Positions 14,898-49,855 of a stretch of DNA of 64,000 bases are shown here, piece by piece (the first letter of the stretch is position 1; every line of letters starts with the position of its first letter). A program made the position numbers and the translations under genes. The stretch spans positions 129,785-193,784 of the forward strand of contig CAYUUR010000001.1 in the NCBI GenBank assembly GCA_964448075.1, in the 5' to 3' direction. The DNA is from an uncultured Candidatus Saccharibacteria bacterium (lineage in GTDB: Bacteria > Patescibacteriota > Saccharimonadia > Saccharimonadales > CAYUUR01). The notes below the pieces were generated by a model that was not told the DNA's origin, searched no databases, and saw only the letters and a program-made list of their open reading frames with translations.

Positions 14898-15395
14898 ATG
14901 GCACAGTTTAGTTTTGATATAGTAAGCGACTATGACAAATCAGAGATGAACAACGTCTTTGACCAAACGCAGCGCGAGATAACAGCGCGCTACGACTTTA
15001 AAGGCACACCTGCAGCGATTGATTGGCTTAACGCCGAGAAAACAGGCTTCAAGATAACAGGCAATAGCGATTACCAGATAGACGCAATTCTCGACATCGT
15101 ACGCAAAAAACTTGCCACGCGTGAACAGAGCCAAAAAGTCCTCGACACCACCAAAGAAGCTTCCACCAGTAACATGCAAACCACCAAAGAAGTACCGTTC
15201 CTGCAAGGGCTCGATCAAGAAAAAGCCAAGAAAATCACCAAGCTGATCCGTGACGAACTACCCAAGGTCAAGACTCAGATCCAAGGCACCGAAGTCCGCG
15301 TGACCAGTGGCAGCAAGGACGACCTCCAGACCGTCATGCAACTGCTCCGCAGTAAGGACTTCGACTTCCCTCTCAGCTTCACCAACTTCCGCTAG
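14898..15395 (+). CDS. yajQ: YajQ family nucleotide/cyclic-di-GMP-binding protein (UPF0234)
   Basis: FDIVSDYDKSEMNNVFDQTQREITARYDFKGT is the conserved YajQ N-terminus. AGGAG lies upstream. Confidence 0.85.
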   Translation: MAQFSFDIVSDYDKSEMNNVFDQTQREITARYDFKGTPAAIDWLNAEKTGFKITGNSDYQIDAILDIVRKKLATREQSQKVLDTTKEASTSNMQTTKEVPFLQGLDQEKAKKITKLIRDELPKVKTQIQGTEVRVTSGSKDDLQTVMQLLRSKDFDFPLSFTNFR

Positions 15396-15432
15396 TGTAG
15401 CTAATAAAATATGGTCTGGTATACTTTCTGCT

Positions 15433-16842
15433 ATGCACCAACAGGCTCTGAACTACGAGAGGATTAAAGCTCAAGCACGTCACCAGTTAGAACAGAACTG
15501 GACGGGCGAGTACTACGCGCCGCACCTTGACGGCGCATTCCCTGACAACTTCCTGTGGGATACCTGCTTTGTGGCTATGGGGCTGGCTGAAGATGAGCCA
15601 ATGATAGCAGCAACGCAAATGGTTCAGTTAATGCGCTACCAGTGGCCAAATGGCATGATCGCCAACCAGAACGTTGACACAGAACGGAGCGGCACAATTA
15701 TTGAACGCCTAAACTTCCGAACAGACAAAAGCCCTGAAGCACCTGAGAAGCAACCTACCAGCGGCTTTTCTCAACCACCTATGATTGCAGAGGCAACCTG
15801 GACCGTAGCACAAGCGCTGCCCGCGCCAGAGAGACAGCGCTTCTTGGACGTCATGCTGCCAGGGATTATCTCGTACCATCAGTGGCTATTTGATGAGCGA
15901 GATATCAACGGCGACGGTTTAGTCACCCAAATACATCCGTACGAAACAGGTATGGACAACACCCCGCCATACGAATATTTAGTGATGGATAGCAGGTCAA
16001 GATCCGAACGCTTACTCACAGGCCGGGTTATGATGAGCGTCTTTGGCCCGGCCCTTGGTGCGCTGCGTCGCGACTTCAAACATGCTGATCCAGACCACCG
16101 CATGCACAACGCCTCAGTTGCGCAATATCAACTGCTCATCCGCAAACTCGCTCGTCACAGATACGACATCGACAGCATTATTGCCGACCAATCAATTCCA
16201 CTCGTAGAGGATATAACATTCAACAGTATCTTTATGCGCGCGAACACGCGCTTGGTAGAGCTTGCGAGTATGTCCAGCCAAGAACTCCCTGCGCAGCTCA
16301 AAGAGAATATTGCACGGCAACGTACAGCGCTAGATAATCTTTGGGATCCAGCTCAAAAAACATACTTTAGCCGTAACGCCCGTACCAAAGAACTCATTAA
16401 GATCAAAACTATCGGTTCACTTATGCCGCTTTATGCAACTACGCTTGAGCCAGAGCGACGAGACCACCTCGTTGACGACCTAATCGACCCCCGACAATTC
16501 TGGACACGTTACCCCGTACCCAGCGTACCGTGCAAACCTGCCTTTGATGCCAAAGCGCGTCCACTTCACGACCCAAACAGATATTGGAGCGGTGCTTCTT
16601 GGCTTTGGATGAACGGGCTATTAACCGATGGCTTGGAGCGCAACAATGAGCCAGAAATTGCCGGCACACTGCGTCAAAAATCTCTCAGAATGTTTGCGCA
16701 TACGGTCAGAAAACAACAAAGGGGCGCTGCAGAGTACTACAACCCTCACACTGGAGAGGCCATTGGGGTGTTTCCTTTCAGTGCTGCAGCCGCGTGGACA
16801 ATGCGTTTTGCCGACATAGAATTAGCAAAAGCGCTATACTAG
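15433..16842 (+). CDS. GH63-like (alpha/alpha)6 glycoside hydrolase, paralog 1
   Basis: FLWDTCF near the N-terminus and YWSGASWLWMNGLL near the C-terminus. The size matches glucosyl/mannosylglycerate-hydrolase-type enzymes. The start is at ATG 15433, 7 nt after TGgTATACT. Confidence 0.55.
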   Translation: MHQQALNYERIKAQARHQLEQNWTGEYYAPHLDGAFPDNFLWDTCFVAMGLAEDEPMIAATQMVQLMRYQWPNGMIANQNVDTERSGTIIERLNFRTDKSPEAPEKQPTSGFSQPPMIAEATWTVAQALPAPERQRFLDVMLPGIISYHQWLFDERDINGDGLVTQIHPYETGMDNTPPYEYLVMDSRSRSERLLTGRVMMSVFGPALGALRRDFKHADPDHRMHNASVAQYQLLIRKLARHRYDIDSIIADQSIPLVEDITFNSIFMRANTRLVELASMSSQELPAQLKENIARQRTALDNLWDPAQKTYFSRNARTKELIKIKTIGSLMPLYATTLEPERRDHLVDDLIDPRQFWTRYPVPSVPCKPAFDAKARPLHDPNRYWSGASWLWMNGLLTDGLERNNEPEIAGTLRQKSLRMFAHTVRKQQRGAAEYYNPHTGEAIGVFPFSAAAAWTMRFADIELAKALY

Positions 16843-16846
16843 TTCT

Positions 16847-18214
16847 ATGATTTCTGATGACTTGGCCAGCCAAGCCCAAAAAGTGCTCGAGGATAACAAT
16901 CGCTATGACCAGTACACCGTTCCAGCGATTGGTCTATATCCACACCAATGGCTATGGGATAGCTGTTTTATTGCTATCGGTCAGCGTCATTATGATGTGA
17001 AGCGCGCCCAACAAGAAATCCTGAGCCTCTTGCGTGGCCAGTGGTCAAACGGCATGATCCCAAACATGGTGTTTACTAAAACCGACAAACATCGGCGCGA
17101 TAGTAACTTATGGCGTAGCTGGCAAAGTCCTTATGCACCTGATGACGTCGCAACAAGTGGCATCACACAACCACCAGTGCTTGCTGAAGCAGTCACCAAA
17201 ATTGGCGACAAGCTCTCGCTGCCCGAACGTCGCATGTGGTATCAAACAGTATTCAAGGCATTGGTCCGTTATCACAGCTGGCTCTATGCTGAGCGTGACC
17301 CACGTCAAACCGGCCTGGTTCTGCTCGTTCACCCGTGGGAATCCGGCCTCGACAACACTCCGCCGTGGATGTACGAGCTCCATCAGCATAGTCTGCCCTG
17401 GTGGGTCGGCGCAGTCGGTACGTTACATCTGGATAAAGTCGTTAATTTCTTCAGACGTGATGTACAGTTCGTACCAGCTGAACAGCGCCTATCAACGATA
17501 GATATTTTGGCTCTATACAGTATTCTCCGCCGACTCAGACGCAAGACATATGACACGGAGCGAATCCTATCGCACTCGTTGCTAAGCATTGAAGACCTCA
17601 CGTTTAATAGCATCCTGATACGCAACAACAGCCACCTGCAAAAGATTGCCAAAACAATCAAGCAACCCCTGCCAGAAGAGCTCACAACTGCCATGCGAAA
17701 AGCCGAGTCCGCTCTTGAAGAATTATGGGATCCATACGCAGGTCAGTACTACAGTCGTAACTACGCATCAAACAAACTCATCAAAATACCAAGCATTGCC
17801 ACGTTGATGCCCCTGTATGCAGGCTGCATAACCAAAGAACGTGCCGAGCAGCTCGTTCGACTACTGACTGATAAAAAACAGTACGCCGCTCACTTCCCGG
17901 TGCCATCAACACCCATGAATTCAGAGTGGTATAGAGAAATGGGCTATTGGCAAGGGCCAACTTGGATTAATACCAACTGGCTGATTATTGACGGACTAGA
18001 GCGTTACGGCTACCACGATCTCGCAGATCAGATTCGTGAACGGTCGCTCGACCTAGTAAAAGAAGCTGGCTTCTATGAATATTTCTCTGCAAAAACAGGG
18101 CAAGCCGCTGGGACAGACCATTTTTCATGGACAGCAGCACTAACAATTGACCTACTGCAGCAGCAGGCTAGCCACCAAAAAAGTACCAAAAACGCTTCAA
18201 AATCAGACCAATAA
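16847..18214 (+). CDS. GH63-like (alpha/alpha)6 glycoside hydrolase, paralog 2
   Basis: HQWLWDSCFIAIG, GITQPP, HPWESGLDNTPPW and YWQGPTWINTNWLI are colinear with the upstream paralog. Confidence 0.55.
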   Translation: MISDDLASQAQKVLEDNNRYDQYTVPAIGLYPHQWLWDSCFIAIGQRHYDVKRAQQEILSLLRGQWSNGMIPNMVFTKTDKHRRDSNLWRSWQSPYAPDDVATSGITQPPVLAEAVTKIGDKLSLPERRMWYQTVFKALVRYHSWLYAERDPRQTGLVLLVHPWESGLDNTPPWMYELHQHSLPWWVGAVGTLHLDKVVNFFRRDVQFVPAEQRLSTIDILALYSILRRLRRKTYDTERILSHSLLSIEDLTFNSILIRNNSHLQKIAKTIKQPLPEELTTAMRKAESALEELWDPYAGQYYSRNYASNKLIKIPSIATLMPLYAGCITKERAEQLVRLLTDKKQYAAHFPVPSTPMNSEWYREMGYWQGPTWINTNWLIIDGLERYGYHDLADQIRERSLDLVKEAGFYEYFSAKTGQAAGTDHFSWTAALTIDLLQQQASHQKSTKNASKSDQ

Positions 18215-35467: not shown

Positions 35468-36385
35468 TTAAAGCAGAGGCACGTTTTTTTTGATGACGGC
35501 ATCGGTGAGATTCTCTATCATGTCATTGACTATCTGTTTGCCGGGCTGTCGACTTCTGAACTGTGCTTTTTCAAAGATGAGCTGGCGCTCTAGCGCTTGA
35601 TCATCACGCTCGTGTTTTTGTCGAAGAAACGATGTAAATGCTCCAAAGACATCCCTCATTACGACTTCGGCATCGCCTGATGCCATATCAACCAGTTCAA
35701 CTTTAAGTACTGGGTCAAGTTTATTTACCACTTCATCCTTGGCTCCTCTTAAATACGTTTGCTGTTCAGAAGTATAGACACTGGTATTCCCATTTACGTT
35801 TACATAGTCGTAGTCGTACTTTAAGTGCGTCTCTTCCTGGGAGCGGCGATCGATAGCGGAGACTAACGACTGTATAGTCGGGAGGCGCCAGCAAAAAGCA
35901 GCGATTCTACGTTCAAAATTATCGGCATGTAATCCTCTTGCTATTGAGTTATCGAACTCAATAATGTCTTTAGCGACACCAAGAACATCTTTTTCATCGG
36001 TTGACAGAAGCGTATGTTCACCTAGGTCCTCGATGACTGCCAAGATGGTTTGGCCGTATACTGTTTCCGCCCAAGCCGGACGCACCAGCGGCGTCGTGTC
36101 GCTATATTCAAACACAAACAACCCTTCATTCTCTGGGTCATTGATGGAGCAGACAACATGCGTCCGATCGCGCTGCTGCTGGCCATACTCGTCAGTCAGG
36201 TCTGTAACCCGGTGACTGCCAATCTTGAGCTCAGAACCTTTAGGTGAGCGAACGGTATATTCACGCGTTACCGTGCGTGGCTCACCATTGAGAGTAGCCT
36301 CAGCAAGGACAGTTAACGTGTGTAGGTCAATTTGGCTGGCTGGTTCGCCGTTTAGATAAATGGGTTCTTGTTCGTGCGATGACAT
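35468..36385 (-). CDS. Hypothetical protein (305 aa)
   Basis: Long ORF encoding a soluble protein with no recognisable motif. Confidence 0.5.
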   Translation of the reverse strand: MSSHEQEPIYLNGEPASQIDLHTLTVLAEATLNGEPRTVTREYTVRSPKGSELKIGSHRVTDLTDEYGQQQRDRTHVVCSINDPENEGLFVFEYSDTTPLVRPAWAETVYGQTILAVIEDLGEHTLLSTDEKDVLGVAKDIIEFDNSIARGLHADNFERRIAAFCWRLPTIQSLVSAIDRRSQEETHLKYDYDYVNVNGNTSVYTSEQQTYLRGAKDEVVNKLDPVLKVELVDMASGDAEVVMRDVFGAFTSFLRQKHERDDQALERQLIFEKAQFRSRQPGKQIVNDMIENLTDAVIKKNVPLL

Positions 36386-36447
36386 AGAATAATCAGATTA
36401 TTTCACACTGTTGTGTATTTTGCTATTACGTTATGTATGCGTGCTTT

Positions 36448-36699
36448 CTATTGGCTGGCGATGGTATCTGCATTAATGCCATTCGTAACATGCATAAAAC
36501 CAAGCTGCTGGAATACTGGTATCGCTGCCTGTGCTCGACGACCACTCACACAGTACACGACGATTTCAGTGTTGCGATCAAGCCCGCTCAACGTTGCAGC
36601 TGCCTCTGATAAGTCACTCATAGGAATATTGAGCGCACCAGTTACATGTCCCTCGCGATATTCGTCAGGCTCACGTACGTCTACAAAAACTCTGTTCAT
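36448..36699 (-). CDS. Single-domain rhodanese-like sulfurtransferase
   Basis: VVYCVSGRRAQ active-site loop (C-x-x-G-x-R) and EYREGHV upstream motif. Confidence 0.8.
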   Translation of the reverse strand: MNRVFVDVREPDEYREGHVTGALNIPMSDLSEAAATLSGLDRNTEIVVYCVSGRRAQAAIPVFQQLGFMHVTNGINADTIASQ

Positions 36700-36722
36700 T
36701 CGTCTATTTTACCGCCAATAAC

Positions 36723-37130
36723 CTAATCAAGTCTACGCAGAATTGTAAAGCCTAGGCACACCAGCATTAATCGTTCACGTGAGGTACATATTAATCGTTC
36801 ACGGCGAGCATACGTCTGGACATCAACCTCACCGAAAGCATGCTCGCCACCATAGACTGGCGTCGCTCGCACCACAGGCAAATCAACCGCATGTTGCTTG
36901 TCTCTTATGAACCGTGGCGAAAGCACGTACATTGGAAATCCTGTAGGTAGGGCGGCTGGTTCTACCGACAACGCAAGCATTTGGTACGGATCTTGGTTTT
37001 CTCTGAGGTCAACAGGCAGCGCTATGGCTGCAAATCTATGGAACATTCGCGTTGTTTCCGCCAAACGCATGCGTTCAGCCTGATCCATAAAGTCAGGCGG
37101 TCCACTCAACGACAACTCCTGCGCAACCAT
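36723..37130 (-). CDS. Hypothetical protein (135 aa)
   Basis: ORF in a co-directional cluster with no recognisable motif. Confidence 0.45.
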   Translation of the reverse strand: MVAQELSLSGPPDFMDQAERMRLAETTRMFHRFAAIALPVDLRENQDPYQMLALSVEPAALPTGFPMYVLSPRFIRDKQHAVDLPVVRATPVYGGEHAFGEVDVQTYARRERLICTSRERLMLVCLGFTILRRLD

Positions 37131-37160
37131 ACGTTATATTATACGCCGAACAACAAGTAG

Positions 37161-37820
37161 CTAGGCGCTATCCCTGAAGACAGCATCCCAATCAACAGAA
37201 CCAATACTAGCCTCAAGCTCTGACTGATCGCGCAAACGGTGAACCGTACGCACTGCATCTGCCAAACTCATAAAAAAGCCAAACCCATACCTAACAAATA
37301 TATCGTGATCACGTGTCGCAGTTGCTTCATTGAGCGTCCGATCGCTTTCGATCAAACCATGATACGGCTTTGAGAATGTATAATAGCCGGTCTCGCCAAG
37401 CTTTTTTACGCTTTCTTTGGCCCGATCCCTTGAGGCTTTACCTTGCACTTGATTCGCGTCACCATTATAAACAACGCCGATACCGTGTTCTGCAATTTCC
37501 TGCACAGTATCGTCACTAAGCATCAATGCCCCTGCGATATTTGCAAGCAGATAACCATTCTTAAAGGCATTATGACTCGGTGCGATTAAACCTCTGTCTG
37601 TGACAACACGCATGTCGGCGTGCATCATCAATGCACCCGATGCAACCAAAGCATCTGCTGGTGTCTGTTTGGGAATGTAATCATTATAAATGAGCGCCAG
37701 GCTACTAACACCGCCACGCTTCATGACTTCAAGCTCGAGTTGCTCAGCACCTGCCGGCGACATCAGCGCATCAAGCTGCTGCACCACCTGAAAAGAACCT
37801 AATTGACCGTGCTCACTCAT
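37161..37820 (-). CDS. Hypothetical protein (219 aa)
   Basis: The start is set at ATG 37820, 7 nt after TATAAT (37833-37828). It ends in GSVDWDAVFRDSA. Confidence 0.5.
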   Translation of the reverse strand: MSEHGQLGSFQVVQQLDALMSPAGAEQLELEVMKRGGVSSLALIYNDYIPKQTPADALVASGALMMHADMRVVTDRGLIAPSHNAFKNGYLLANIAGALMLSDDTVQEIAEHGIGVVYNGDANQVQGKASRDRAKESVKKLGETGYYTFSKPYHGLIESDRTLNEATATRDHDIFVRYGFGFFMSLADAVRTVHRLRDQSELEASIGSVDWDAVFRDSA

Positions 37821-37859
37821 TTTCAGCATTATATGCTTTTATATAACGATTACAAGTAT

Positions 37860-39491: not shown

Positions 39492-41234
39492 CTATAACGC
39501 CAGGACAGTTTGTTCTACCTGTTTCGGTGGCAACACCCGTTCGATCAGTTCTTTTTGGCGACGCAATTGACTTTCGACACTTTCAGTCGACTCAAGCTCA
39601 ATTACCTCGTTCATTTGTGCGATAAGCTGCACCAGTGCAGGGTCATCATCGTGTTCAAGCTGCGACAGGTGCTCTAATAATTGCTGCGCGAGCTCGACAT
39701 CTACACCCTCCCCAATGCGTGCAAGCAGTTCGTGCATGGTGTTATTTATAGTCTTCGCAAGCGCTTGATCCCCTACCACCTCAGCTGCATCGCCGTTTAA
39801 CAGCCCGGATTTTGCAGCAACAACCGTATTTGCTGCTGTATTGAGAGCTTTCGTTCTGGCCGCCTTTGATGCACGACGCGCGTATTCGGATGCTTTGGCT
39901 TCTCGTTCCGAACCTTCTACGCTCGTATCAAAATGGAAGGCGCTGCGCATCCCGTTCGCGTAGTCTGTTATTGCTTTATCTACACTGAGTACTAGTTTTG
40001 GAAGCTCTGGGTCAAAGTCACGGATCCAGATGGCCTTTTCGTAGATCAAATCATCGCCAAGCCCAGCACGCTTCATGCGGGCTAATTCTTCGGCTTGTGT
40101 ATAAGAAATACCCTCAGTATGAATTAAGAGTCTGATGTTATCAGGAAGTTCACTCAGTCTTTCGCGGGTCGCGATGTCACTTCTGATCTGGACTGCTGAC
40201 ATGGCCTGTTCACTGTACATCTGCACCAGACCGATAGCATCTTTTTCACTGTATATCTTTAGTAGCCTTGCACACTCACTCACCCCCTCAAAAGACAAGC
40301 CGTTTTCCATATGTTCACGCTTCATGGCGCCTGGTAGGTCGTTAAAGCGCAGCATACGCCACACTGTGCCCATGTCTTTTTTAGCCAAGTCAGCCAACTC
40401 TTTGTTTGTCACAGGGTCCCCATCTCGTTCACGCAATGTGACGATCCGTCCCAGCATGCGTGCCCATTCCCACGGTTCTATCGGACGATTACTGTTTTCG
40501 TTGGCTTGCACCTTCAATGCCTGATAAAACGGCGGATTATCAAATACGCGAGCTTCAAAACCAATACCTCTGTCTGGATGCCCATTTGTTTCTACGTTTG
40601 CTGACGCTGCCCCGAGCAATCGGTTATGACCAGACATCATAATTATCCATCTACCGAACCGCCGGTGGTAAGGAACCTCATCAACACTAATATTGGTCTC
40701 CCAGTAGTCATTCAAGTCAGCGAGGTATGCCTCAATATGATCTTCATCATGTATGCCTACTGCCCCATGCTCAAGCTGACCACCGTAATCATCGCGCATG
40801 CTTCTGCCAAGTCGAGTGTAGTATGTCTGGTCGTACGTCTCTCTGGTTTGCGGAGCAATAAATGCCGATGATGGACGCAAAGTTACAAACCTTGAGCGAC
40901 CGACCTTCGAGATTGATTCGTGCACCAGTCGTCCTGTTGTACGTTTACGTGGTGTAAAAGCAAACTCGATAGCTTCTTCTCGAGACTGTTTGGTCGGGTC
41001 CGGCATGAGCGCCTCTTGCGTATCAAACCCTACCCTGATTACTTTTGTAAACTTACGGTCTTCGAAGAGTTTATCTTCTGGCTGGTCTGATGTGTCAGGA
41101 GTGTCAACCTCATCAGGGACTTCAACGTGTTTACGAGCAACGCCATAATCTTCTGCGCGTATAAAACCAGGAGTAACCTGCTCTATCTGCTCGCCGTCGC
41201 CTTCAACTCTCATAGCCTCTGCTGGTACTGCCAT
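39492..41234 (-). CDS. Divergent ParB/Srx-fold protein with long N- and C-terminal extensions
   Basis: The central region MMSGHNRLLGA...NENSNRPIEPWEWARMLGRI....TNKELADLAKKDMGTVWRMLRFNDLPGAMK..MENGLSF is colinear with the ParB N-domain plus HTH. The C-terminus looks coiled-coil. GGAAAGGAAGGG precedes ATG 41234. Confidence 0.5.
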   Translation of the reverse strand: MAVPAEAMRVEGDGEQIEQVTPGFIRAEDYGVARKHVEVPDEVDTPDTSDQPEDKLFEDRKFTKVIRVGFDTQEALMPDPTKQSREEAIEFAFTPRKRTTGRLVHESISKVGRSRFVTLRPSSAFIAPQTRETYDQTYYTRLGRSMRDDYGGQLEHGAVGIHDEDHIEAYLADLNDYWETNISVDEVPYHRRFGRWIIMMSGHNRLLGAASANVETNGHPDRGIGFEARVFDNPPFYQALKVQANENSNRPIEPWEWARMLGRIVTLRERDGDPVTNKELADLAKKDMGTVWRMLRFNDLPGAMKREHMENGLSFEGVSECARLLKIYSEKDAIGLVQMYSEQAMSAVQIRSDIATRERLSELPDNIRLLIHTEGISYTQAEELARMKRAGLGDDLIYEKAIWIRDFDPELPKLVLSVDKAITDYANGMRSAFHFDTSVEGSEREAKASEYARRASKAARTKALNTAANTVVAAKSGLLNGDAAEVVGDQALAKTINNTMHELLARIGEGVDVELAQQLLEHLSQLEHDDDPALVQLIAQMNEVIELESTESVESQLRRQKELIERVLPPKQVEQTVLAL

Positions 41235-41365
41235 TATTCCCTTCCTTTCCAAACAGTGTAGCGCTATATGTAGCGTTTTTGAAGAAAACTCTTCTGTCAA
41301 TTACACAACGAATTACACCGTTGCATAAAAACGACTTCTGCGCCAAATAGTTGTATAATGCTGCT

Positions 41366-42037
41366 ATGAATCCGACAGACGAACTCGCTTTTCCTTTCCG
41401 TACATTCTCAAATGAGCTCCAAATGGACATGACTGAGTTTATAGAAACCGGCGTCAATAAAGAGCTGATTGACCCTGTAAACGCAGGTCGCCTGCTGGCA
41501 CTCGGCGACGTTGCGACCGGCTGCAGTGTAGAGCTGTCTGCTGCTATGCAGAACAAGCTATACGCAATAAATGATGGCTATGACTCAGAATACGTTCCTG
41601 GCAGAATCATTGCGCCGGCGCTCCGTGTCCGTGAAGACTTCCGCGAGGTCAGTCGTGTTTACTTACAGCTAGCCGACAAGGCACCATGGCTCCTGCGCGA
41701 CTTATTCGCAGTAGATGAAATCTGTGACCCTGCCGAAGCCATCGCAGTCAGTGGCATTCCGGCAGACTTTGCAGATCATCCGCTACGCGTTGCACCACAA
41801 ACGCAAACGCTAGCCGGGTTCCACCCCAAGTCCCCACGTATATTCTCAGAACGAGATAACAACATTCTTACCAAGCCACCAAAAGGCGTGCGACGGCAAT
41901 GGAAGCAAGCAGCAGCAGTACGCTGGGCGCTCCACCTTAGTTATTTCAATGCTGACACAGAAGAGCCTATAGTGAATAGCGTTACCCGGCACTACGACCT
42001 GCAGCTCGTGAAGAAAAAGCAAACTCAGACCGACTAG
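41366..42037 (+). CDS. Hypothetical protein (223 aa)
   Basis: ATG 41366 lies 6 nt after TATAAT. No recognisable motif. Confidence 0.5.
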   Translation: MNPTDELAFPFRTFSNELQMDMTEFIETGVNKELIDPVNAGRLLALGDVATGCSVELSAAMQNKLYAINDGYDSEYVPGRIIAPALRVREDFREVSRVYLQLADKAPWLLRDLFAVDEICDPAEAIAVSGIPADFADHPLRVAPQTQTLAGFHPKSPRIFSERDNNILTKPPKGVRRQWKQAAAVRWALHLSYFNADTEEPIVNSVTRHYDLQLVKKKQTQTD

Positions 42038-43320
42038 TCAGGGCTATCTACGTCTAACCGTCCTTGTGGCGGCAGCGGAAAACGTAATCGCGGTCCTCGT
42101 ACCGCCAGCATGTCAGCAATATACCAAGTTGTTGCACTCATGCGCGATTCACAGGTAGTTTCCGCTGGGCAACACCTGCAAGACTTTTCATACGCTGCCA
42201 TTTGCTTGGGGTCGTCAGGGTTTTCGTCCACGACGATCAGCGGCGTACGCTTGCCGTCGCGAAACTTCCGCGGCAATGGTTCAATCGTCCAGTTTCCAGG
42301 CGCCTTGCTACAAAGCAAACCAGAAAGTAACCACACCGCGTCACATAACCTAAGCGGGTCAGCGTCCTTGCGCACCACATAGTCCAGGTATACTTTACGC
42401 AATGCATCGGTTGTTTCTGGACGCATAAGATCAGTGTTTGACGGCACGCCCGGGAAGCTAATTAGACCATTCAATATACTAACCCGCATTACGTGCACAT
42501 CAACCGGTATGGGGAACTTAAAGCTGTCTATCAACCCATCATCCATCAAAAAGTAGGTAATCATACTGACCATCTTTTCTTTGAAGCCTTTAAACCCGCC
42601 GCCCTTTTTGTCATTCTCTATCCGTCGGCAAGCCTCAGCGTAATCTGTGACACCATCAAATATCTCCAGCGGATCACCATCATATCTATCGACCATCCTG
42701 ATCGCATTCTCTACCCAGATGCGCGCTGTCGTATTGTGCAGCCCCAGCCCAAATGCTTGCAGTGCGTCTGCGATGTCTTGCTCCACTATGGCGCGCGGCG
42801 TCTCTGGGTTCAACGGCTCCACCACGTCTTCTGTCAGCGTGTCATGCTCAAGCTCTTCAGCCAGCCGTTCAACGTCAACCGGTGATGACTGCACATCACT
42901 GCCAAGATTTGCCACAATCTTATTGCAGTCAAATAAATCTGGGCGGGTATCATACATCCGCCCCAGACGGGTATAGGCAGTAAACGACTTTATTCCCCCA
43001 CGCATGTAGTAGCAGCAGGCAAAATGAAACATGGCGTGTTCGCGACCACCACGTTCCAGCGTTTTTGGCATGTTTTCTAGGATATGCGGAGAACGAGCTT
43101 CTGGCAGATTATACGGGAACTCGCCTGCTTCAAGCGTAGCCAAGAGCTTATCGAGCACTTTGTCGACGCGCTCGGGGTGTACTTCTATCGGCAATTTTGG
43201 CTCAGGCCAAGCTGTTATTTCTGACTCCCAGTCTCTGTACTGTTCCAGCAGTGCTGAATGGTCTGACTCTGGGCGCGGCACATAGTACTGCGAGTGTTCA
43301 AAAAGTTGCTCCCCGTTCAT
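42034..43320 (-). CDS. HhH-GPD-superfamily (endonuclease III-like) protein with N-terminal extension and C-terminal Cys cluster
   Basis: GFKGFKEKMVSMITYFL is a helix-hairpin-helix-like segment, and IPVDVHVMRV can be compared with PVDTHVxRV of Nth. The C-terminus carries CRCCPAETTC. The start is uncertain between ATG 43320 and TTG 43356. Confidence 0.45.
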   Translation of the reverse strand: MNGEQLFEHSQYYVPRPESDHSALLEQYRDWESEITAWPEPKLPIEVHPERVDKVLDKLLATLEAGEFPYNLPEARSPHILENMPKTLERGGREHAMFHFACCYYMRGGIKSFTAYTRLGRMYDTRPDLFDCNKIVANLGSDVQSSPVDVERLAEELEHDTLTEDVVEPLNPETPRAIVEQDIADALQAFGLGLHNTTARIWVENAIRMVDRYDGDPLEIFDGVTDYAEACRRIENDKKGGGFKGFKEKMVSMITYFLMDDGLIDSFKFPIPVDVHVMRVSILNGLISFPGVPSNTDLMRPETTDALRKVYLDYVVRKDADPLRLCDAVWLLSGLLCSKAPGNWTIEPLPRKFRDGKRTPLIVVDENPDDPKQMAAYEKSCRCCPAETTCESRMSATTWYIADMLAVRGPRLRFPLPPQGRLDVDSPD

Positions 43321-43352
43321 ACAAAACAGTCTAATGACTGTGTCATTAGACT
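43321..43352 (-). terminator. Hairpin plus U-rich tract between the SHOCT gene and the HhH-GPD-like gene
   Basis: AGTCTAATGAC-TGT-GTCATTAGACT forms a perfect 11-bp stem. On the minus strand it is followed by GUUUUGU and then immediately ATG 43320. Confidence 0.45.
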
Positions 43353-43402
43353 GCAATCATAAGCAACATGACGGTTCACGTTGCGTGCGATTATTAAATC
43401 CT

Positions 43403-43672
43403 CTAAAGCCCGAGGATCTGTTTCTTCTTCGCATCAAACTCCTCTTGCGTCAGGATACCCTGATCTTTGAGTTGTGCGAGTTGCTGTAGCTGAGCCATAT
43501 CGTCATCTACTGCAGGAGCGGGTGCGCTCGGAGCCGCCTGTTGAACCTCTTGCTGCTGCGCTTCTTGGGCGCCCCATCGTTCCGCCTGTCTACGGCTCAC
43601 ACGGTTTGAGGCAGCGGTCGCTGTTCCTGCGACCACTGCTGTTCGAGCCATTCCACGTAGTAATCCTGGCAT
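43403..43672 (-). CDS. SHOCT domain-containing protein
   Basis: The C-terminal LKDQGILTQEEFDAKKKQILG is the SHOCT motif. Confidence 0.75.
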   Translation of the reverse strand: MPGLLRGMARTAVVAGTATAASNRVSRRQAERWGAQEAQQQEVQQAAPSAPAPAVDDDMAQLQQLAQLKDQGILTQEEFDAKKKQILGL

Positions 43673-45218: not shown

Positions 45219-45365
45219 AAGCTTATTGTACCTGAAGCTTAATTACAAAGGATAATGTGGCCACCGTAACACACCTGGTGCAATGCCTAATCGTCACCAT
45301 TGCGTACAAACAGCGCTGATGAATGTGACTTTGCATTTTGTTTTATTTTATGCTATTATATTGTA

Positions 45366-45875
45366 ATGAATACGCCGGAATTTGTCTCCCTCGGAGAAAT
45401 ACAAGTCGATCGAGACGGTCAAAATCTCGTTCCCGTTGCAGTTCACCCTGTTACTGAACTTAGTATTGCACATGACGAAAACGGTAATTCTTTGCATCAA
45501 GTTACATTCGACAGAATGGTCCGTGCAGAGGAACGATTTAACGATAATGGCATATGGTTCGTACAGCGCATATACATTCCCCAGACTGAAACTATCGTAA
45601 CCGATAACTCGCGTACTGCTCGCTATTTGTTAGTTGGCGATGTTGTCGTGGAACGCAAGCCCCATGGCCCGGCACTTATTGACGGCATGGTTGAGCTTTC
45701 TGAAGAACTAGAAGAAGAACTTAAAGACGAAGATATTGGGGCGCGATCTGTCGCCATACATGCAGCACTTGGTCTGATCCAGCGCTCAATTATTGAAAGC
45801 TACCGCCCAATTACCGATGAGCAAGGCCGTTTTACCGTCAACCCCACACCTGTTCTTGTTGCTAAAACAAACTAG
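45366..45875 (+). CDS. Hypothetical protein, 169 aa, paralog B of 31688..32197
   Basis: ATG 45366 lies 6 nt after TGcTATTAT. Same length as paralog A, with conserved blocks GQNLVPVAVHPVTEL, HQVTFDRMVR, ETIVTDNS, LVGDVVVERK and ALIDGMVELSEELE. Confidence 0.6.
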   Translation: MNTPEFVSLGEIQVDRDGQNLVPVAVHPVTELSIAHDENGNSLHQVTFDRMVRAEERFNDNGIWFVQRIYIPQTETIVTDNSRTARYLLVGDVVVERKPHGPALIDGMVELSEELEEELKDEDIGARSVAIHAALGLIQRSIIESYRPITDEQGRFTVNPTPVLVAKTN

Positions 45876-45986
45876 CCATCTATTCCTCATCTTTCTCTCA
45901 TCGGTATGAGTACCTTCCGGACTTTTCAAAGTTTGCATACAACAAAATAGCAGGTCAGGCTAGTATCATGTGTTATAGTCTGATTT

Positions 45987-46487
45987 ATGGAAAGTTATTG
46001 TGCGACAGGTATTATGGTGCCGTCAGAAGCGGCAATTATCATTGATGAGTTTTGTGAACAAGGCGATAAAAGCATTGATTACTTTTTTGGTGAATGTATT
46101 GAGGTTGGCATCCTGTGCGCCAAGCAATACCTCGCCAACCTCACAGAAGGCTACCCTACAGCACTGGTGTGGTACAGCGCAGACAGGCAGTACAATCAAG
46201 AATTTTTGGACTTTGAACAGCACACTGAACAGTCAGCACCCGAAACCGCACATATGTTTGATGTCGTTGATCCTTTTGCTACTGACGAGCCACATTTTTA
46301 TCTTTTGAATCATTTTATGCCCCAGATTCAGCCGTTGATTGAAGCGCTTGATATACCGTTACATACCTTTATGCAACGCGCTATCGAACTACGCATTGGC
46401 TTACAGCAAGTCAGAGAAGACGGTGGCAATCTCGCAGTTTCTAACGGCGCAGAAGAATTTTGGTACTTTGCAGACGCGTCTAGTTAG
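45987..46487 (+). CDS. Hypothetical protein (166 aa)
   Basis: ATG lies 7 nt after TGtTATAGT. Acidic, with no recognisable motif. Confidence 0.45.
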   Translation: MESYCATGIMVPSEAAIIIDEFCEQGDKSIDYFFGECIEVGILCAKQYLANLTEGYPTALVWYSADRQYNQEFLDFEQHTEQSAPETAHMFDVVDPFATDEPHFYLLNHFMPQIQPLIEALDIPLHTFMQRAIELRIGLQQVREDGGNLAVSNGAEEFWYFADASS

Positions 46488-46962
46488 CGCAGAGGGCGTA
46501 GTCGATCAGGTTTACTGGTAGGTAGAGCGGGCGGCGGACGGGTCTGTCATGCGGCAGGTAGTAGTCAAATGACATTTCTGACATGCCGTCTTCTGCAGAC
46601 AGCTCAACTTCTGCGGGTGGGTCAAGCACATCTGCTCCGGTAAGCATCCATGATAATGAGCCGTTTTGGCCAAAGGCAACATACTGTGCGCGGCCAAGGT
46701 TGCCCCGCAAACGCAGGGCGCCAAACTGTAGATATGGCCAGATTGCCTCGTCTGTCGACATGCCGTCGCGCATCATCAGTGCTGCTTCTGAGCCAACAAT
46801 CACCTTTGTGGCACCCCGAAAGTCATGCTGGCCAGCCAATGCATCACATGCCAGCTGCGCAGCAACTAACCGCGCCTGTGGGTCCGCCTCTGCATCAATA
46901 ACCTCTTGCCACCCCTGACAAGTCTCCAGAAAATTAGTAGCTACAAATAGTCCCTCTGCCAT
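46480..46962 (-). CDS. Hypothetical protein (160 aa)
   Basis: ORF with AGGAGGAAGAT upstream of the ATG. No recognisable motif. Confidence 0.5.
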   Translation of the reverse strand: MAEGLFVATNFLETCQGWQEVIDAEADPQARLVAAQLACDALAGQHDFRGATKVIVGSEAALMMRDGMSTDEAIWPYLQFGALRLRGNLGRAQYVAFGQNGSLSWMLTGADVLDPPAEVELSAEDGMSEMSFDYYLPHDRPVRRPLYLPVNLIDYALCAN

Positions 46963-47020
46963 ATCTTCCTCCTAATGCAAACTATTCTACTCCGCAAGTC
47001 AAAACTTAGCCAATAATCCG

Positions 47021-47953
47021 TTACAGGTTTGGATTGGGCGGGCCGTAGATAGTCGCAATCTCGGCTTGTTCTAAAACTTCTGCGAGGAACTGGATGTCTT
47101 GTTTGAACGGCGCAGTGAACAGTTCCAGGAACATGATCATTTCATCGGCGATATCGGCATCAGGGTTCAGCTTGCCTTCGCTGTCAAAATGCTCAACGTC
47201 GATATAATTGAGGTCATCATCAATCCTCGCAACCTCTAACCTCACAGTACCATCTGGATAGATCAAGAACTCATACTGGTTGCGTTCTTTTACGCTTTCG
47301 ATATCAATCTCAAGCCATGGTTCGTCTTGCGCATTCATATCCTCATCGTTCAAGCGGACAAGTACATTACCCACCCAGTGCTGGTGCACTATCGACACAT
47401 CGCGAACAGCAAAAGCCTTCACATCTTTTTCATCAACTGCAACATCAACCAGATTCTGAGCCAACTGCCGAGCCTCATCAGGCGACATGCCGTGACGATC
47501 TACAAATTGATCAAACGAAATCTCTGCGTGCTTGTATAGCAAAACGCTTTGCAGATACCTCGTGGCGGTTCTTTCTGCGCTGTTGAGTAACCCTGAATCT
47601 AAAGCTGTATCAAGGCATGCGAAGACTGTTGCTGCATCTGCCTTGATAAGAATCTCACTGTTTGCAACGAGTTCAAGCTCACATATGAGCTCTTCTTCTG
47701 CATCAATCATACAAATGTATGGGCGTATTTTATCCTCGCCTGTGTGGTACCGATTGCCAAACTCTATGCATATATCACCATTAAGGTTAAACCCATAAGA
47801 CTTAGTTAGCTCGCATGGGCTACCACTCATCAGCGATTCAGCGGCTGCTTCAAGTCGCATATAGTCATCTTGGTCTGGTTCTACCATTTCTTCAGGGAAA
47901 AAGCCCTGTTTATACTCATAACCAAACTCCCAGCTTTCTCCAGATGTAGACAT
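47021..47953 (-). CDS. Hypothetical protein (310 aa, acidic)
   Basis: Long ORF with no recognisable motif. Confidence 0.5.
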   Translation of the reverse strand: MSTSGESWEFGYEYKQGFFPEEMVEPDQDDYMRLEAAAESLMSGSPCELTKSYGFNLNGDICIEFGNRYHTGEDKIRPYICMIDAEEELICELELVANSEILIKADAATVFACLDTALDSGLLNSAERTATRYLQSVLLYKHAEISFDQFVDRHGMSPDEARQLAQNLVDVAVDEKDVKAFAVRDVSIVHQHWVGNVLVRLNDEDMNAQDEPWLEIDIESVKERNQYEFLIYPDGTVRLEVARIDDDLNYIDVEHFDSEGKLNPDADIADEMIMFLELFTAPFKQDIQFLAEVLEQAEIATIYGPPNPNL

Positions 47954-48090: not shown

Positions 48091-48696
48091 ATGCCAGGTA
48101 TAGAACAGTTCCCAGCAGCAGAAGTAGTACTAACGGATGAGGAGCGGCTCATGGCTGCTTTTAGTAGCTTTGCGATTGCTAATACTGCGGAGGAAGAAAC
48201 GCGTGCACGAGTTACAAACTTGAGCATTCGAGCCGAGAATTTATCAGAAGAATTTCATGCGCATGAACCCGCACTAAAGCATCAAAATCGGCAGCAGTAT
48301 TTGTATGAGCTTGGTGGAGTTATGGATACAATATACACGCTAAAAAAGGCGCGGAGCGAAACGGACGAAACAACATCGGAAGCCCGTCGTAACATGATTA
48401 GGACTGCTCAAGAATTCCGTGGACGTAAACTACATGTCGTATCTCTTCTTCCAGAAGATAGCCGTCAACCAATCGGTGCGCTTGCTCGGACCCGTTATGA
48501 CTATACCGGACCCGTCATTATCGACGACCTGCGTGAAGCAGTTGGCAAAGTTGCACACCCAGCAGTAGACGGCAACAACCTTGATCTTGTGCCGCACAAA
48601 CCCAAGCGCGTGGGCATCAAACGTCTGACATCGCTTGCAGTTAGAATGGTAGGTCCAAATGGCCAACCACTTGTTAAGCTTGAATTCCTCGACTAG
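48091..48696 (+). CDS. Hypothetical protein (201 aa)
   Basis: GGAGGAATCAC precedes the ATG. No recognisable motif. Confidence 0.5.
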   Translation: MPGIEQFPAAEVVLTDEERLMAAFSSFAIANTAEEETRARVTNLSIRAENLSEEFHAHEPALKHQNRQQYLYELGGVMDTIYTLKKARSETDETTSEARRNMIRTAQEFRGRKLHVVSLLPEDSRQPIGALARTRYDYTGPVIIDDLREAVGKVAHPAVDGNNLDLVPHKPKRVGIKRLTSLAVRMVGPNGQPLVKLEFLD

Positions 48697-49688
48697 TCGT
48701 TAACCTCCCAGGCAAAATCGTGTCCAAAGTGCCCGTAACGAGCGGTTTGCTCGTACTGTGGCTTGCGGAGATCCAGCCACTTAATAATACCGTTTGGCGA
48801 TAAGTCGTAGCCGGTGACTGCTTCTTGGACGCCATCAATCGTTACTGTTGCTTCGAGCGGCTGATCATAGCCGATTGCGTATGCTAGGTGACAGAACACT
48901 TCCTTAGCCTTGCGCTTTTTTAGGTATTCCACGGCGATTCGGCGTGCCGCATATGCTGCAGAACGGTCGACTTTACTGGGGTCTTTGCCACTGAAACAGC
49001 CACCGCCAATGGGGATACGAGGGCCGTAGTTATCTACCACAAGTTTACGGCCTGTTAGACCCGTGTCGGCATCAAAGCCTCCCTGATCCCAGTCTCCGGT
49101 TGGGTTGATATGGAGTTGCGTAGATTGGAGACTGAAGACTGAGGATTGGAGACTAGAAGCCCAGGTGAGAACAGCTTTTTTGAGTTCGGATTGCTTGGCA
49201 TGCTGGAAGCTCGCCACCAAACTAACTATCCTGCCGTCGTGTAATGTCACTTGTGTTTTGCCATCATATGGCCACTTGGCATACAAATACTGATTGAGTT
49301 GACGACTCAGAACAACTTCTAGTGGCAACAGTTCTGGCGTTTCATCGCAAGCGTAGCCAACCATAATTCCTTGGTCACCCGCGCCACCAGTGTCGACACC
49401 CCGGGCGATTTCTGGACTCTGCGCTACTATACGAACTTCCACTTCATTGCCCGGTGCTAGCCGCTGAACAATTGGCTCTACTTTGATATTGCCATGCGAG
49501 GTCACTTCTCCAACTACAAATATCTTCCCGTGGCCGCCGACCGTCTCAACCGCTACGCGGGACGCAGGATCTTGCGCTAGATAGGCATCCAGTATGGCGT
49601 CTGATATTTGGTCACACAGTTTGTCTGGGTGCTGGGGTGAAACACTCTCCGCAGTGCGGTAATTGGTTTGATTTGATTTCGTCGACAT
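48693..49688 (-). CDS. metK: S-adenosylmethionine synthetase (compact, 331 aa)
   Basis: ESVSPQHPDKLCDQISDAILD, GAGDQGIMVGYA, INPTG..GGF.ADTGLTGRK and GGGCFSGKDPSKVDRSAAY motifs. It is preceded by a SAM riboswitch. Confidence 0.9.
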   Translation of the reverse strand: MSTKSNQTNYRTAESVSPQHPDKLCDQISDAILDAYLAQDPASRVAVETVGGHGKIFVVGEVTSHGNIKVEPIVQRLAPGNEVEVRIVAQSPEIARGVDTGGAGDQGIMVGYACDETPELLPLEVVLSRQLNQYLYAKWPYDGKTQVTLHDGRIVSLVASFQHAKQSELKKAVLTWASSLQSSVFSLQSTQLHINPTGDWDQGGFDADTGLTGRKLVVDNYGPRIPIGGGCFSGKDPSKVDRSAAYAARRIAVEYLKKRKAKEVFCHLAYAIGYDQPLEATVTIDGVQEAVTGYDLSPNGIIKWLDLRKPQYEQTARYGHFGHDFAWEVND

Positions 49689-49689
49689 G

Positions 49690-49855
49690 AAAAAACTCCT
49701 TTCTATCGACCCCGTGGCAGGTCAGAAAGGAGCGTGCTGCTCGGCTATCTTCCCCGCGTACGGGCTGAATGTTGCACCTTGCAGCTGGGCTGTAGGTTGC
49801 AGGTGGGTCGACGGGTCAGTTCCCTCGCCACACTCTGGATAGTTACATTGTTAAC
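49690..49855 (-). promoter_or_regulatory. SAM-I riboswitch (aptamer about 49745..49842) with terminator and SD-sequestering expression platform
   Basis: The minus-strand RNA reads CUAUCCAGAGUGUGGCGAGGGAACUGACCCGUCGACCCACCUGCAACC...AAGGUGCAACAUUCAGCCCGUACGCGGGGAAGAUAG. P1 pairs CUAUC with GAUAG. The P2-loop CUGA can pair with UCAG in J3/4. CUCCUUUCU (49732-49724) then pairs with AGAAAGGAG (49704-49696), followed by U6 and AUG. The -10 box TGcTATACT is at 49870-49862. Confidence 0.8.

Follow-up and report, generated by a model that had tools for sequence, protein, structure and literature searches.

An orphan ParB-like gene recurs beside a predicted HhH-GPD glycosylase gene in Patescibacteria

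A 64,000-nucleotide stretch of the genome of an uncultured Candidatus Saccharibacteria bacterium (contig CAYUUR010000001.1; hereafter the window) carries three adjacent genes, here called A, B and C. A encodes an orphan protein with the ParB-CTPase fold, C a protein of the HhH-GPD superfamily of DNA glycosylases, and B a lineage-restricted protein. What is conserved is the A-C pair rather than the trio. Tentatively, the pair may serve replication-linked base excision, with the predicted glycosylase C assisted or controlled by the ParB-like A. An earlier note on this DNA, made from its letters alone, did not recognise the combination as any described system, and no description of a ParB-like protein paired with an HhH-GPD protein was found in the literature searched. 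The A-C pairing with a shared clamp-motif tail appears to be new, and each protein represents a new family in a known superfamily. The coordinates of all features are collected in Table 1.

The linkage was surveyed by scanning one genome per GTDB species with an alignment of C, which gave 74 C loci in which open reading frames (ORFs) were called and neighbours clustered. Among the neighbours of C the A family is the most frequent: the clustering counts it in 27 loci, and the next true neighbour in 12. An A-family gene lies within 800 bp of C in at least 22 of the 74 loci, a lower bound since several contigs end next to C. The earlier note had proposed all three genes as one module; the A-C part recurs, and B is confined to the immediate clade of the window, where it is inserted between the other two. 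A-C pairs occur in metagenome-assembled genomes (MAGs) labelled Saccharimonadia, Paceibacteria, Wolfebacteria and Parcubacteria, and about 10 of the 18 C sequence clusters, the most divergent ones included, contain C proteins linked to A. With C drawn from left to right, four arrangements are found: ←A C→ (divergent, A upstream), A→ C→, C→ ←A and C→ A→. The divergent arrangement, with A and C about 100 bp apart, is the commonest in Saccharimonadia, and convergent or tail-to-head arrangements are also common (L045, L056, L061, L078, L053, L062). At loci found from the A side, C is adjacent in L081 and L085 and not adjacent in L079 and L083. The spread over some ten C clades and four arrangements suggests that the linkage has been selected rather than inherited as one operon.

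It is rather improbable that the two genes have no functional link, with C a housekeeping glycosylase acting on its own, A an orphan ParB-like protein that has nothing to do with it, and the adjacency of the two genes residual synteny. A is missing from most C loci and C from some A loci, and in Saccharimonadia A also belongs to a recurrent block with SNase, CobA-like and glutaredoxin genes, as residual synteny would have it. However, adjacency is kept where C is only 25-45% identical to that of the window, in four orientations and in at least 10 C clades, and no other neighbour of C comes close to the count of A. The same rare C-terminal motif is, moreover, carried independently by both families.

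This motif is found at the end of most long-form A relatives and many C-family members, which terminate in Q-x-x-L-F, for example QEGLF in A relatives and QGKLF in C relatives. The dipeptide [LIM]F occurs within the last three residues of 63 of 120 C proteins (52%) and 23 of 52 A proteins (44%), against 21 of 1070 other genes of the same loci (2%); the odds ratios are 55 for C (Fisher p = 2e-52) and 40 for A (p = 1e-21). Tails that also have Q at position -5 number 35 in C, 13 in A and 2 among other genes. The C-terminal sequence QL(S/D)LF is the bacterial β-clamp-binding consensus, and base-excision repair (BER) enzymes stimulated by the clamp are known (PMC9690074). We hypothesize from the motif that the tails of A and C bind the β sliding clamp, and the tail that they share suggests that both take part in DNA maintenance coupled to replication. 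Mycobacterial Nei2 and XthA (with DnaN) and eukaryotic MUTYH and UNG2 (with PCNA) offer a parallel, in that the clamp recruits or stimulates the glycosylase via a terminal peptide (PMC9690074), whereas for A and C clamp binding is predicted from the motif. No precedent was found for a second, ParB-like protein with the same clamp tail as the glycosylase.

C was said in the earlier note to have an endonuclease III (EndoIII)-like core, and structure comparison bears this out. The AlphaFold2 (AF2) model of C (predicted local distance difference test score, pLDDT, 89.8) has the two-domain, all-alpha HhH-GPD fold, a six-helix barrel plus a four-helix domain. Foldseek matches it at probability 1.0 to the PDB entries 3knt (MjOgg), 3n0u (Tm1821) and 4uob (D. 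radiodurans EndoIII-3), to OGG1 and to 7ugk, with a TM-score (TMt) of 0.66 for MjOgg and 0.54 for 4uob; AGOG is also among the PDB matches. Among viral models (BFVD), C matches EndoIII from Halogranum tailed virus 1 (E 1.3e-5, TMt 0.71, probability 1.0). By E-value the best PDB match is QNG1/DUF2419 (E 2e-4), but its TM-score is 0.37/0.44. Pfam and NCBIfam scans of C gave nothing significant, the best being AGOG (PF09171; E 0.15, 11.8 bits against a gathering threshold of 26.1), and PF00730 (HhH-GPD) is absent from the Pfam report for C even at E <= 1. PF09171, which is precomputed on a minority of C-family members, is the sole sequence-level signal for C. A profile of the C family against PDB likewise finds only Pyrobaculum AGOG (Pa-AGOG, 1xqo; E 0.08), in an alignment that places D274 on chain position 172, inside PIPVD. 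The 121 homologues of C come nearly all from Saccharibacteria or other Patescibacteria and are annotated as hypothetical, occasionally as endonuclease III or N-glycosylase/DNA lyase; among the 74 C loci the sole non-bacterial one is in a Nanoarchaeia MAG (L069), and a C homologue is also present in a Nanosynbacter-type Saccharibacterium (L016), a cultivable kind. Judged by its model, C is a member of a new, mainly Patescibacteria family within the HhH-GPD superfamily.

C keeps residues that could form the active site of such an enzyme. In an alignment of 45 C sequences the candidate helix-hairpin-helix (HhH) segment is invariant at G242, G245, F246, K249, M250, S252 and M253 (GFxGFxEKMxSM), and the segment that follows is invariant at P272, D274, H276 and R279 (PIPVDxHVxRV); CYYMRGG and PGN are further conserved motifs. 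The hairpin followed by Asp is the order seen in HhH-GPD enzymes, where the Asp is about 20 residues downstream; in C the spacing from Lys249 to Asp274 is 25 residues. The earlier note had left the catalytic Lys and Asp to be looked for, and these two invariant residues are the candidates. A weak hhalign alignment (8.9% probability) to an approximate sequence of E. coli EndoIII, to be taken as a lead only, puts K249 on K120 and D274 on D138, lines up PIPVDVHVMRV with IAVDTHIFRV and sets the Lys in register with GVGRK. From these residues C is probably a bifunctional glycosylase and apurinic/apyrimidinic (AP) lyase. Its substrate could be oxidised bases, a guess from its similarity to AGOG and OGG.

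The cysteine cluster near the C terminus is present, but not in the pattern C-R-C-C-x5-C given for it before. C103, C337, C381, C384 and C390 are invariant in the 45 sequences and C383 is not conserved, so that the pattern is C381-x2-C384-x5-C390 together with C337 (and C103). The C-x2-C-x5-C spacing is that of the last three cysteines of the EndoIII/MutY cluster, the first one being displaced in C to C337, 43 residues upstream. A [4Fe-4S] cluster is probable from this set of cysteines.

Compared with EndoIII (Nth) and the EndoIII-like Fe-S glycosylases (4uob and the Halogranum virus EndoIII), C has the two-domain HhH-GPD fold in common, and with EndoIII also the G-x-x-x-K hairpin and helix, the xxVDxHxxRV motif of the Asp and the C-x2-C-x5-C spacing. 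C is, however, twice as large as EndoIII, has an extensive and conserved N-terminal part containing CYYMRGG, and has no Pfam HhH-GPD match. The first cysteine of its cluster stands about 43 residues upstream rather than 6 as in EndoIII (C-x6-C-x2-C-x5-C), its Lys-to-Asp spacing is longer than the 18 residues of EndoIII, and most members of its family have the extra Q-x-x-L-F tail. AGOG (PF09171, 1xqo) and OGG2 (MjOgg 3knt, Tm1821 3n0u) resemble C in the fold match and the PIPVD alignment, but C scores far under the AGOG gathering threshold. To our knowledge, AGOG and OGG2 have no Fe-S cluster.

A has the ParB N-terminal domain and helix-turn-helix (HTH) that the earlier note ascribed to it, with GHNR at the position of GERR. 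A profile of 20 non-canonical A members matches M. xanthus ParB, Spo0J and Noc in PDB (E 1e-9 to 1e-5) over the N-domain and HTH. The AF2 model of A has a pLDDT of 83 overall and above 90 for residues 80-430. Its Foldseek matches at probability 1.0 include Spo0J (TMt 0.69), Noc (0.67), KorB (0.55) and ParB-CDP, and the DNA-binding-domain matches to Noc/ParB have TMt 0.68-0.78. The HTH peptide picked out in the earlier note aligns with the ParB HTH, and the long helical tail that it described is present in the model at residues ~430-580. An N-terminal extension of about 230 residues, also described there, does not hold up: box I is at Q129-T-R131, the strands of the N-domain start from residue ~107-129, and only residues 1-73 are disordered, followed by a short structured add-on at residues 80-106 (~30 residues) before the ParB N-domain.

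The Pfam scan of A gave only a sub-threshold HTH_ParB match (E 0.0018, 18.8 against 22.6 bits) at residues 350-389 (window 40068-40187). This match lies on a second 'LPxxI…' helix pair past the true HTH, because the post-HTH 'LP…' pair is, as the sequences of the long A subfamily indicate, internally duplicated. Within the family, HTH_ParB is matched in 13 of 25 members and ParB_N in 7 of 25, and ParB_N, HTH_ParB, ParB_C and KorB are the only Pfam families matched among A relatives. NCBIfam gave no informative match for A. By profile and model, A belongs to the orphan proteins of the ParB-CTPase fold, carries a ParB-type HTH and forms a new family in a known superfamily.

The nucleotide pocket of ParB (Q..R, G..R, EN), which had been left for checking, is kept in A. 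Q129, R131, G202, R205, Q243, E246 and N247 are invariant in an alignment of 46 A sequences. Q129, R131, G202, R205 and N247 are also invariant in an alignment of 25 sequences, where the boxes of A fall on QPR, GERR and EN of canonical ParBs, and E246 is nearly invariant in another A alignment. A is predicted from these residues to bind a nucleoside triphosphate (NTP). In the alignment, SGHNRLLGA of A falls on box II of canonical ParB, GERRxRA, which reads AGERRYMAA in L038. Saccharimonadia-type members have His where box II has its catalytic Glu, and this His varies hardly at all among the 46 sequences; GERR is kept in some Paceibacteria-type members. In the N-domain insertion, which forms a helix at residues 164-178 of the model, Y170 is nearly invariant (46 sequences), as are D173 and N175 in the long subfamily.

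Word-indexed homologue searches with A alone or with a 20-sequence A-family profile returned essentially the query only. Exhaustive phmmer searching of 1.84 billion representative proteins recovered 52 relatives; none exceeds 35% identity, and 20 have E-values below 1e-30. A hidden Markov model iterated over the C loci added about 30 A-family members and marginal canonical ParBs. Between the window and locus L001, C is 66% identical, A 29% and B 33%. By these comparisons the A family is rare and fast-evolving.

The earlier note had considered that A might simply be the chromosome-partition ParB of the organism, with parA elsewhere. This is highly improbable. The ParB N-domain and HTH fold of A would suit the role, and the inspection covered 64 kb of the genome. 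However, residues 1-150 of A have no [LIVM]G[KR]G[LFI] ParA-binding motif, and the 64-kb window holds no ParA-type Walker A (KGGxGK[ST], deviant Walker A) protein, in keeping with the earlier remark that no parA lies near, and no canonical ParB. The GHNR box and the 35-residue insertion, the rarity of the family and its fast evolution where C is well kept, and the lack of a repeated parS-like site in the window also argue against it, and in the Patescibacteria loci L038 and L063 canonical ParBs (GLGRGL, GERR) are separate genes. A thus differs from canonical Spo0J-type ParB in having no box II Glu (GERRxR), no parA in the window and no LG[KR]GL, and has the ParB-type HTH in common with it. Orphan ParB-CTPase proteins (Noc, KorB and VirB-type) are more alike, having an NTP-binding N-domain and a ParB HTH with no ParA and no ParA-binding motif; A differs from them in the GHNR box II, the 35-residue insertion, the duplicated post-HTH pair, the long coiled tail with a clamp-motif-like end and the predicted DNA glycosylase as its recurrent partner. 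A survey of the ParB-CTPase fold lists many orphan ParBs and mentions neither glycosylases nor Patescibacteria (PMC12704722).

The divergent promoter region between A and B is 74% identical between the window and L001, whereas the third codon positions of A, B and C are 28-40% identical (saturated). One of its two essentially invariant blocks holds the inverted repeat CGCTA-N4-TAGCG, which sits between a possible -35 (TTCAAA) and a possible -10 (TACACT; TTCAAA-N17-TACACT). Both blocks, slightly diverged, also precede the A homologue of L079, a locus that lacks B and C in its vicinity, so the element belongs to A. It is a single copy, with no further (parS-like) copies in the window. We infer that the element is the promoter and operator of A and a candidate site for its HTH.

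A could then be only a transcription factor, a KorB-like repressor of its own promoter and of neighbours including C, with no role in repair. The ParB-type HTH, the presence of KorB among the structural matches and a promoter that is far better conserved than coding DNA, carries an inverted repeat between its putative -35 and -10 and accompanies A even where C is absent (L079) are all consistent with such a repressor, and the divergent arrangement of A and C about 100 bp apart is a typical layout for a regulator and its target. Simple operator sharing does not explain the convergent and tail-to-head arrangements, however, and in the window B separates C from A, with C on a different promoter. 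The Q-x-x-L-F tail common to A and C would be unexpected for a plain repressor, and the invariance of the NTP-pocket residues also speaks against this role, which on balance is unlikely to be the only one of A.

DpdA/DpdB and 5mYOX/ParB are the closest functional analogy to A and C. In both, a ParB-superfamily protein is encoded with a base-flipping enzyme and needed by it, with no stable complex (PMC10164549, PMC13229309). The ATPase DpdB is required by DpdA to exchange guanine in DNA (PMC10164549), and the phage protein ParB176 is required by the thymine dioxygenase 5mYOX176 specifically on double-stranded DNA (PMC13229309). The partners there are a tRNA-guanine transglycosylase (TGT)-fold transglycosylase and an Fe/2-oxoglutarate dioxygenase, and here an HhH-GPD glycosylase. 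DpdB is a DGQQR/DUF262-type ATPase, whereas the motif of A is GHNR and is accompanied by a canonical ParB HTH. A does not belong to the DpdB/DUF262 type of ParB-like ATPases (GmrS, SspE, DndB), which are partnered with a TGT-like or nuclease domain, and neither A nor its relatives have a Dpd, Dnd or Ssp match in PADLOC. The 5mYOX-associated ParBs are without a DNA-binding domain, unlike A. The Dpd and 5mYOX systems are found in modification or restriction clusters or in phages, whereas A and C lie among housekeeping genes.

By analogy with DpdB/DpdA and ParB176/thymine dioxygenase, A and C may cooperate in replication-coupled base excision. C would be the BER glycosylase/lyase, with an EndoIII/AGOG-like active site formed by Lys249 and Asp274. 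A would bind DNA, probably as an NTP-gated dimer or clamp, and would help C to act on duplex DNA or control it. The β sliding clamp would bring both proteins to newly replicated DNA through their C-terminal tails, and A would probably autoregulate through the operator-like element in its own promoter. In its most specific form, the proposal is that in Patescibacteria a ParB-fold NTP-gated DNA clamp has become the subunit that targets or activates an Fe-S HhH-GPD glycosylase, with both on the β clamp and with a specific sequence or a non-canonical base, rather than generic damage, as a possible target. The licensing of base-flipping enzymes on duplex DNA by ParB-like proteins, an emerging pattern in DNA modification (DpdAB, 5mYOX-ParB), would then extend to base excision. 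Stated so fully, the proposal is doubtful.

Several observations weigh against a cooperating pair. About 50 of the 74 C loci have no A within 8 kb, and A occurs without C in L079 and L083. Part of the linkage in Saccharimonadia could be inherited synteny, as a CobA-like gene also recurs near A. The tails of the window's own proteins are degenerate (QTVLAL in A, QGRLDVDSPD in C), and the short A forms beside C in Paceibacteria-type loci are mostly without the tail motif. Neither A nor C passes a Pfam gathering threshold (ParB_N, HTH_ParB, HhH-GPD, AGOG). In the 5mYOX system, mutations in the NTP pocket of the ParB did not abolish function (PMC13229309), so a conserved pocket is no proof of dependence on NTPase activity.

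The pair could instead be a defence or DNA-modification system, in which the glycosylase excises or exchanges a modified base, whether of the host or of a phage, and restriction or modification is completed by a partner, either ParB-like or a nuclease. The earlier note leaned to such a context, given that ParB-fold and HhH glycosylase-like proteins both occur in it. ParB-fold proteins are part of the Dpd, Dnd/Ssp and 5mYOX systems. The best PDB E-value of C belongs to QNG1, a queuine-salvage enzyme that binds a 7-deazaguanine nucleotide, and a protein with a PD-(D/E)xK motif flanks C in 12 loci that have no A, and an HNH/His-Me endonuclease in three loci. The TM-score to QNG1 is low, however, against 0.66-0.71 for OGG2/EndoIII, and the HNH neighbour resembles a free-standing homing endonuclease. 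PADLOC-DB v2 has no match for A, B or C of the window or for the PD-(D/E)xK-like proteins, the sole PADLOC matches being ParB-domain noise in a few A members and a homing-endonuclease model for the HNH protein of L001. A, B and C have no PHROG match, and a set of 50,697 phage records yielded no homologue of either A or C. Modification genes, such as those for a methyltransferase or TGT, are absent nearby, the flanks are housekeeping genes with no mobile-element signal and no defence-island context, and synteny of the locus is kept between relatives with only 66% identity in C. The ratio of nonsynonymous to synonymous substitution (dN/dS, ~0.05-0.07) is not the signature of an arms race. A defence or modification role is therefore quite unlikely.

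The PD-(D/E)xK-like neighbour is unannotated, has about 250 residues with a conserved D-x11-E-x-K…Q and lies beside C in 12 loci, none of which has an adjacent A. It is probably a PD-(D/E)xK nuclease by its motif, and may be an alternative partner of C. The HNH/His-Me-finger gene is of phage type, resembles homing endonucleases and abuts C in three loci that also have A. It may be a selfish insertion and was rejected as a component of the module on its homing-endonuclease look and its occurrence in three loci only. Six loci have a CobA/CobO/BtuR-type corrinoid adenosyltransferase gene (PF02572, E 1e-46) near C, and A is present in at least five of these. It was also rejected as a partner, being a bona fide PF02572 member that more likely has a housekeeping function (e.g. 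corrinoid adenosylation) and shares synteny with A.

B has no Pfam, NCBIfam, PADLOC or PHROG match. It is not the strict orphan that it had been called, since positional homologues are found in L004 (84% identity) and the L001 group (33%, E 1e-27), and nowhere else. Alignment of B by hhalign to the PD-(D/E)xK-like, CobA-like, HNH, A and L11 neighbour families gave no relation. The idea that B is a diverged nuclease partner was considered and dropped, as nothing supported it. B was added recently, in this lineage alone, and lies outside the conserved module. A TATAAT box lies at 41354-41359, 6 nt before the ATG of B (TACAAT in L001), which suggests a B mRNA with little or no leader.

The ORF coordinates and lengths of the three genes, the peptides quoted in the earlier note and the CTAG at 42034-42037, which forms the overlapping stops of B and C, are all present as it gave them. 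Its outer limit of 43356 is an alternative TTG start of C. The ATG at 43320 is preferred, since the TTG start would take in a terminator-like hairpin, and it fits the homologue P0002, which also has 428 residues. This hairpin may terminate the SHOCT gene that lies upstream (43403-43672), or it may act as a 5' regulatory structure of C. In the comparison with the 92% identical locus L004, the dN/dS values are 0.071 (A), 0.073 (B) and 0.051 (C); with ratios this low, all three are real, expressed protein-coding genes under strong purifying selection. The nearest relatives of all three are in Candidatus Saccharibacteria MAGs.

The surroundings of A and C are ordinary chromosome with housekeeping genes. 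The window encodes PheS/PheT, MetK, BipA, MgsA, tRNA-Gln, a major facilitator superfamily (MFS) transporter, a rhodanese and several orphans, and A is flanked by the MFS transporter and B. An S-adenosylmethionine (SAM, S-box) riboswitch at 49742-49845 on the minus strand lies upstream of metK (48693-49688), and metK is near A and C in L001 too. Runs of orphan ORFs (135-310 residues, no Pfam match) flank the module at 35468-37829 and 45300-47953. Elsewhere in the window, at 15307-18214, is a tandem pair of paralogues, MGH1-like/trehalase-type glycoside hydrolases of 511 and 455 residues.

Table 1. Features of the A-B-C locus in the window, and neighbouring genes at related loci (aa, amino acids)
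Feature	Coordinates	Strand	Remarks
Gene A	39492-41234	minus	580 aa; ATG start, stop 39492-39494; orphan ParB-CTPase fold (model) with HTH
A aa 1-73	41016-41234	minus	acidic, disordered; pLDDT < 50; no ParA-binding motif
A aa ~107-250	40485-40916	minus	ParB N-terminal (NTP-binding) domain, by alignment
A box I, Q129-T-R131	40842-40850	minus	
A aa 160-195	40650-40757	minus	~35-aa helical insertion in N-domain (HDEDHIEAYLADLNDYWE...); gap in canonical ParBs
A box II, G202-H-N-R205	40620-40631	minus	
A box III, Q243..E246-N247	40494-40508	minus	
A aa 275-300	40335-40412	minus	HTH (TNKELADLAKKDMGTVWRMLRFNDLP), then invariant L-P301; aligns with canonical and PDB ParB HTHs
A aa 575-580, Q-T-V-L-A-L	39495-39512	minus	tail; degenerate, hexapeptide-type clamp-binding-like variant
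A/B divergent promoter region	41235-41365		131 bp; two deeply conserved blocks
Conserved block	41246-41275		CTTCAAAAACGCTACATATAGCGCTACACT; essentially invariant; holds the inverted repeat
Conserved block	41296-41312		TTCGTTGTGTAATTGAC on A strand; essentially invariant
Gene B	41366-42037	plus	223 aa; lineage-restricted; convergent with C
Gene C	42034-43320	minus	428 aa; HhH-GPD superfamily (EndoIII/AGOG/OGG2-like), by model
C aa ~138-182	42775-42909	minus	acidic insertion, ~40 aa; only in the window/P0002/P0003 clade; pLDDT 60-72
C aa 242-260, G-F-K-G-F-K-E-K249-M-V-S-M	42541-42597	minus	Gly-rich hairpin and helix; candidate HhH
C Lys249	42574-42576	minus	candidate catalytic Lys; invariant; start of helix 248-260 in model
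C Asp274	42499-42501	minus	candidate catalytic Asp in P-I-P-V-D-V-H-V-M-R-V; invariant
C aa 381-390, C-x2-C-x5-C	42151-42180	minus	with distal Cys337 (42310-42312), candidate [4Fe-4S] ligand set
C tail, ending in QGRLDVDSPD	42037-42072	minus	degenerate
Hairpin before C	43326-43354	minus	perfect 13-bp stem (12-13 bp), 3-nt loop, then TTTGTATG (T-run); ends 6 nt before C ATG
Lineage-specific orphan ORFs	35468-36385, 36723-37130, 37161-37829, 45300-45875, 45987-46487, 46480-46962, 47021-47953		no Pfam match
PD-(D/E)xK-like neighbours of C	L020, L025, L028, L031, L032, L035-L039, L043, L057		e.g. L038:1455-2204
CobA-like genes	L010, L018, L026, L027, L050, L065, L081, L083, L086		1-3 kb from A family, with or without C
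HNH genes	L001:6916-7581, L017:3494-4066, L074:6654-7169		4-bp overlap with C in L001

Patescibacteria (the Candidate Phyla Radiation, CPR) have minimal genomes and a poorly understood DNA-repair toolkit. Two uncharacterised protein families found almost entirely in this group are now defined and evolutionarily linked. The putative clamp-binding tail offers a testable recruitment mechanism for both, and the conserved promoter element is a candidate binding site for experiments. If A does assist C, it would be the third independent ParB-fold helper of a base-flipping enzyme, after DpdB and the phage 5mYOX ParBs, and the first such case in repair rather than modification.

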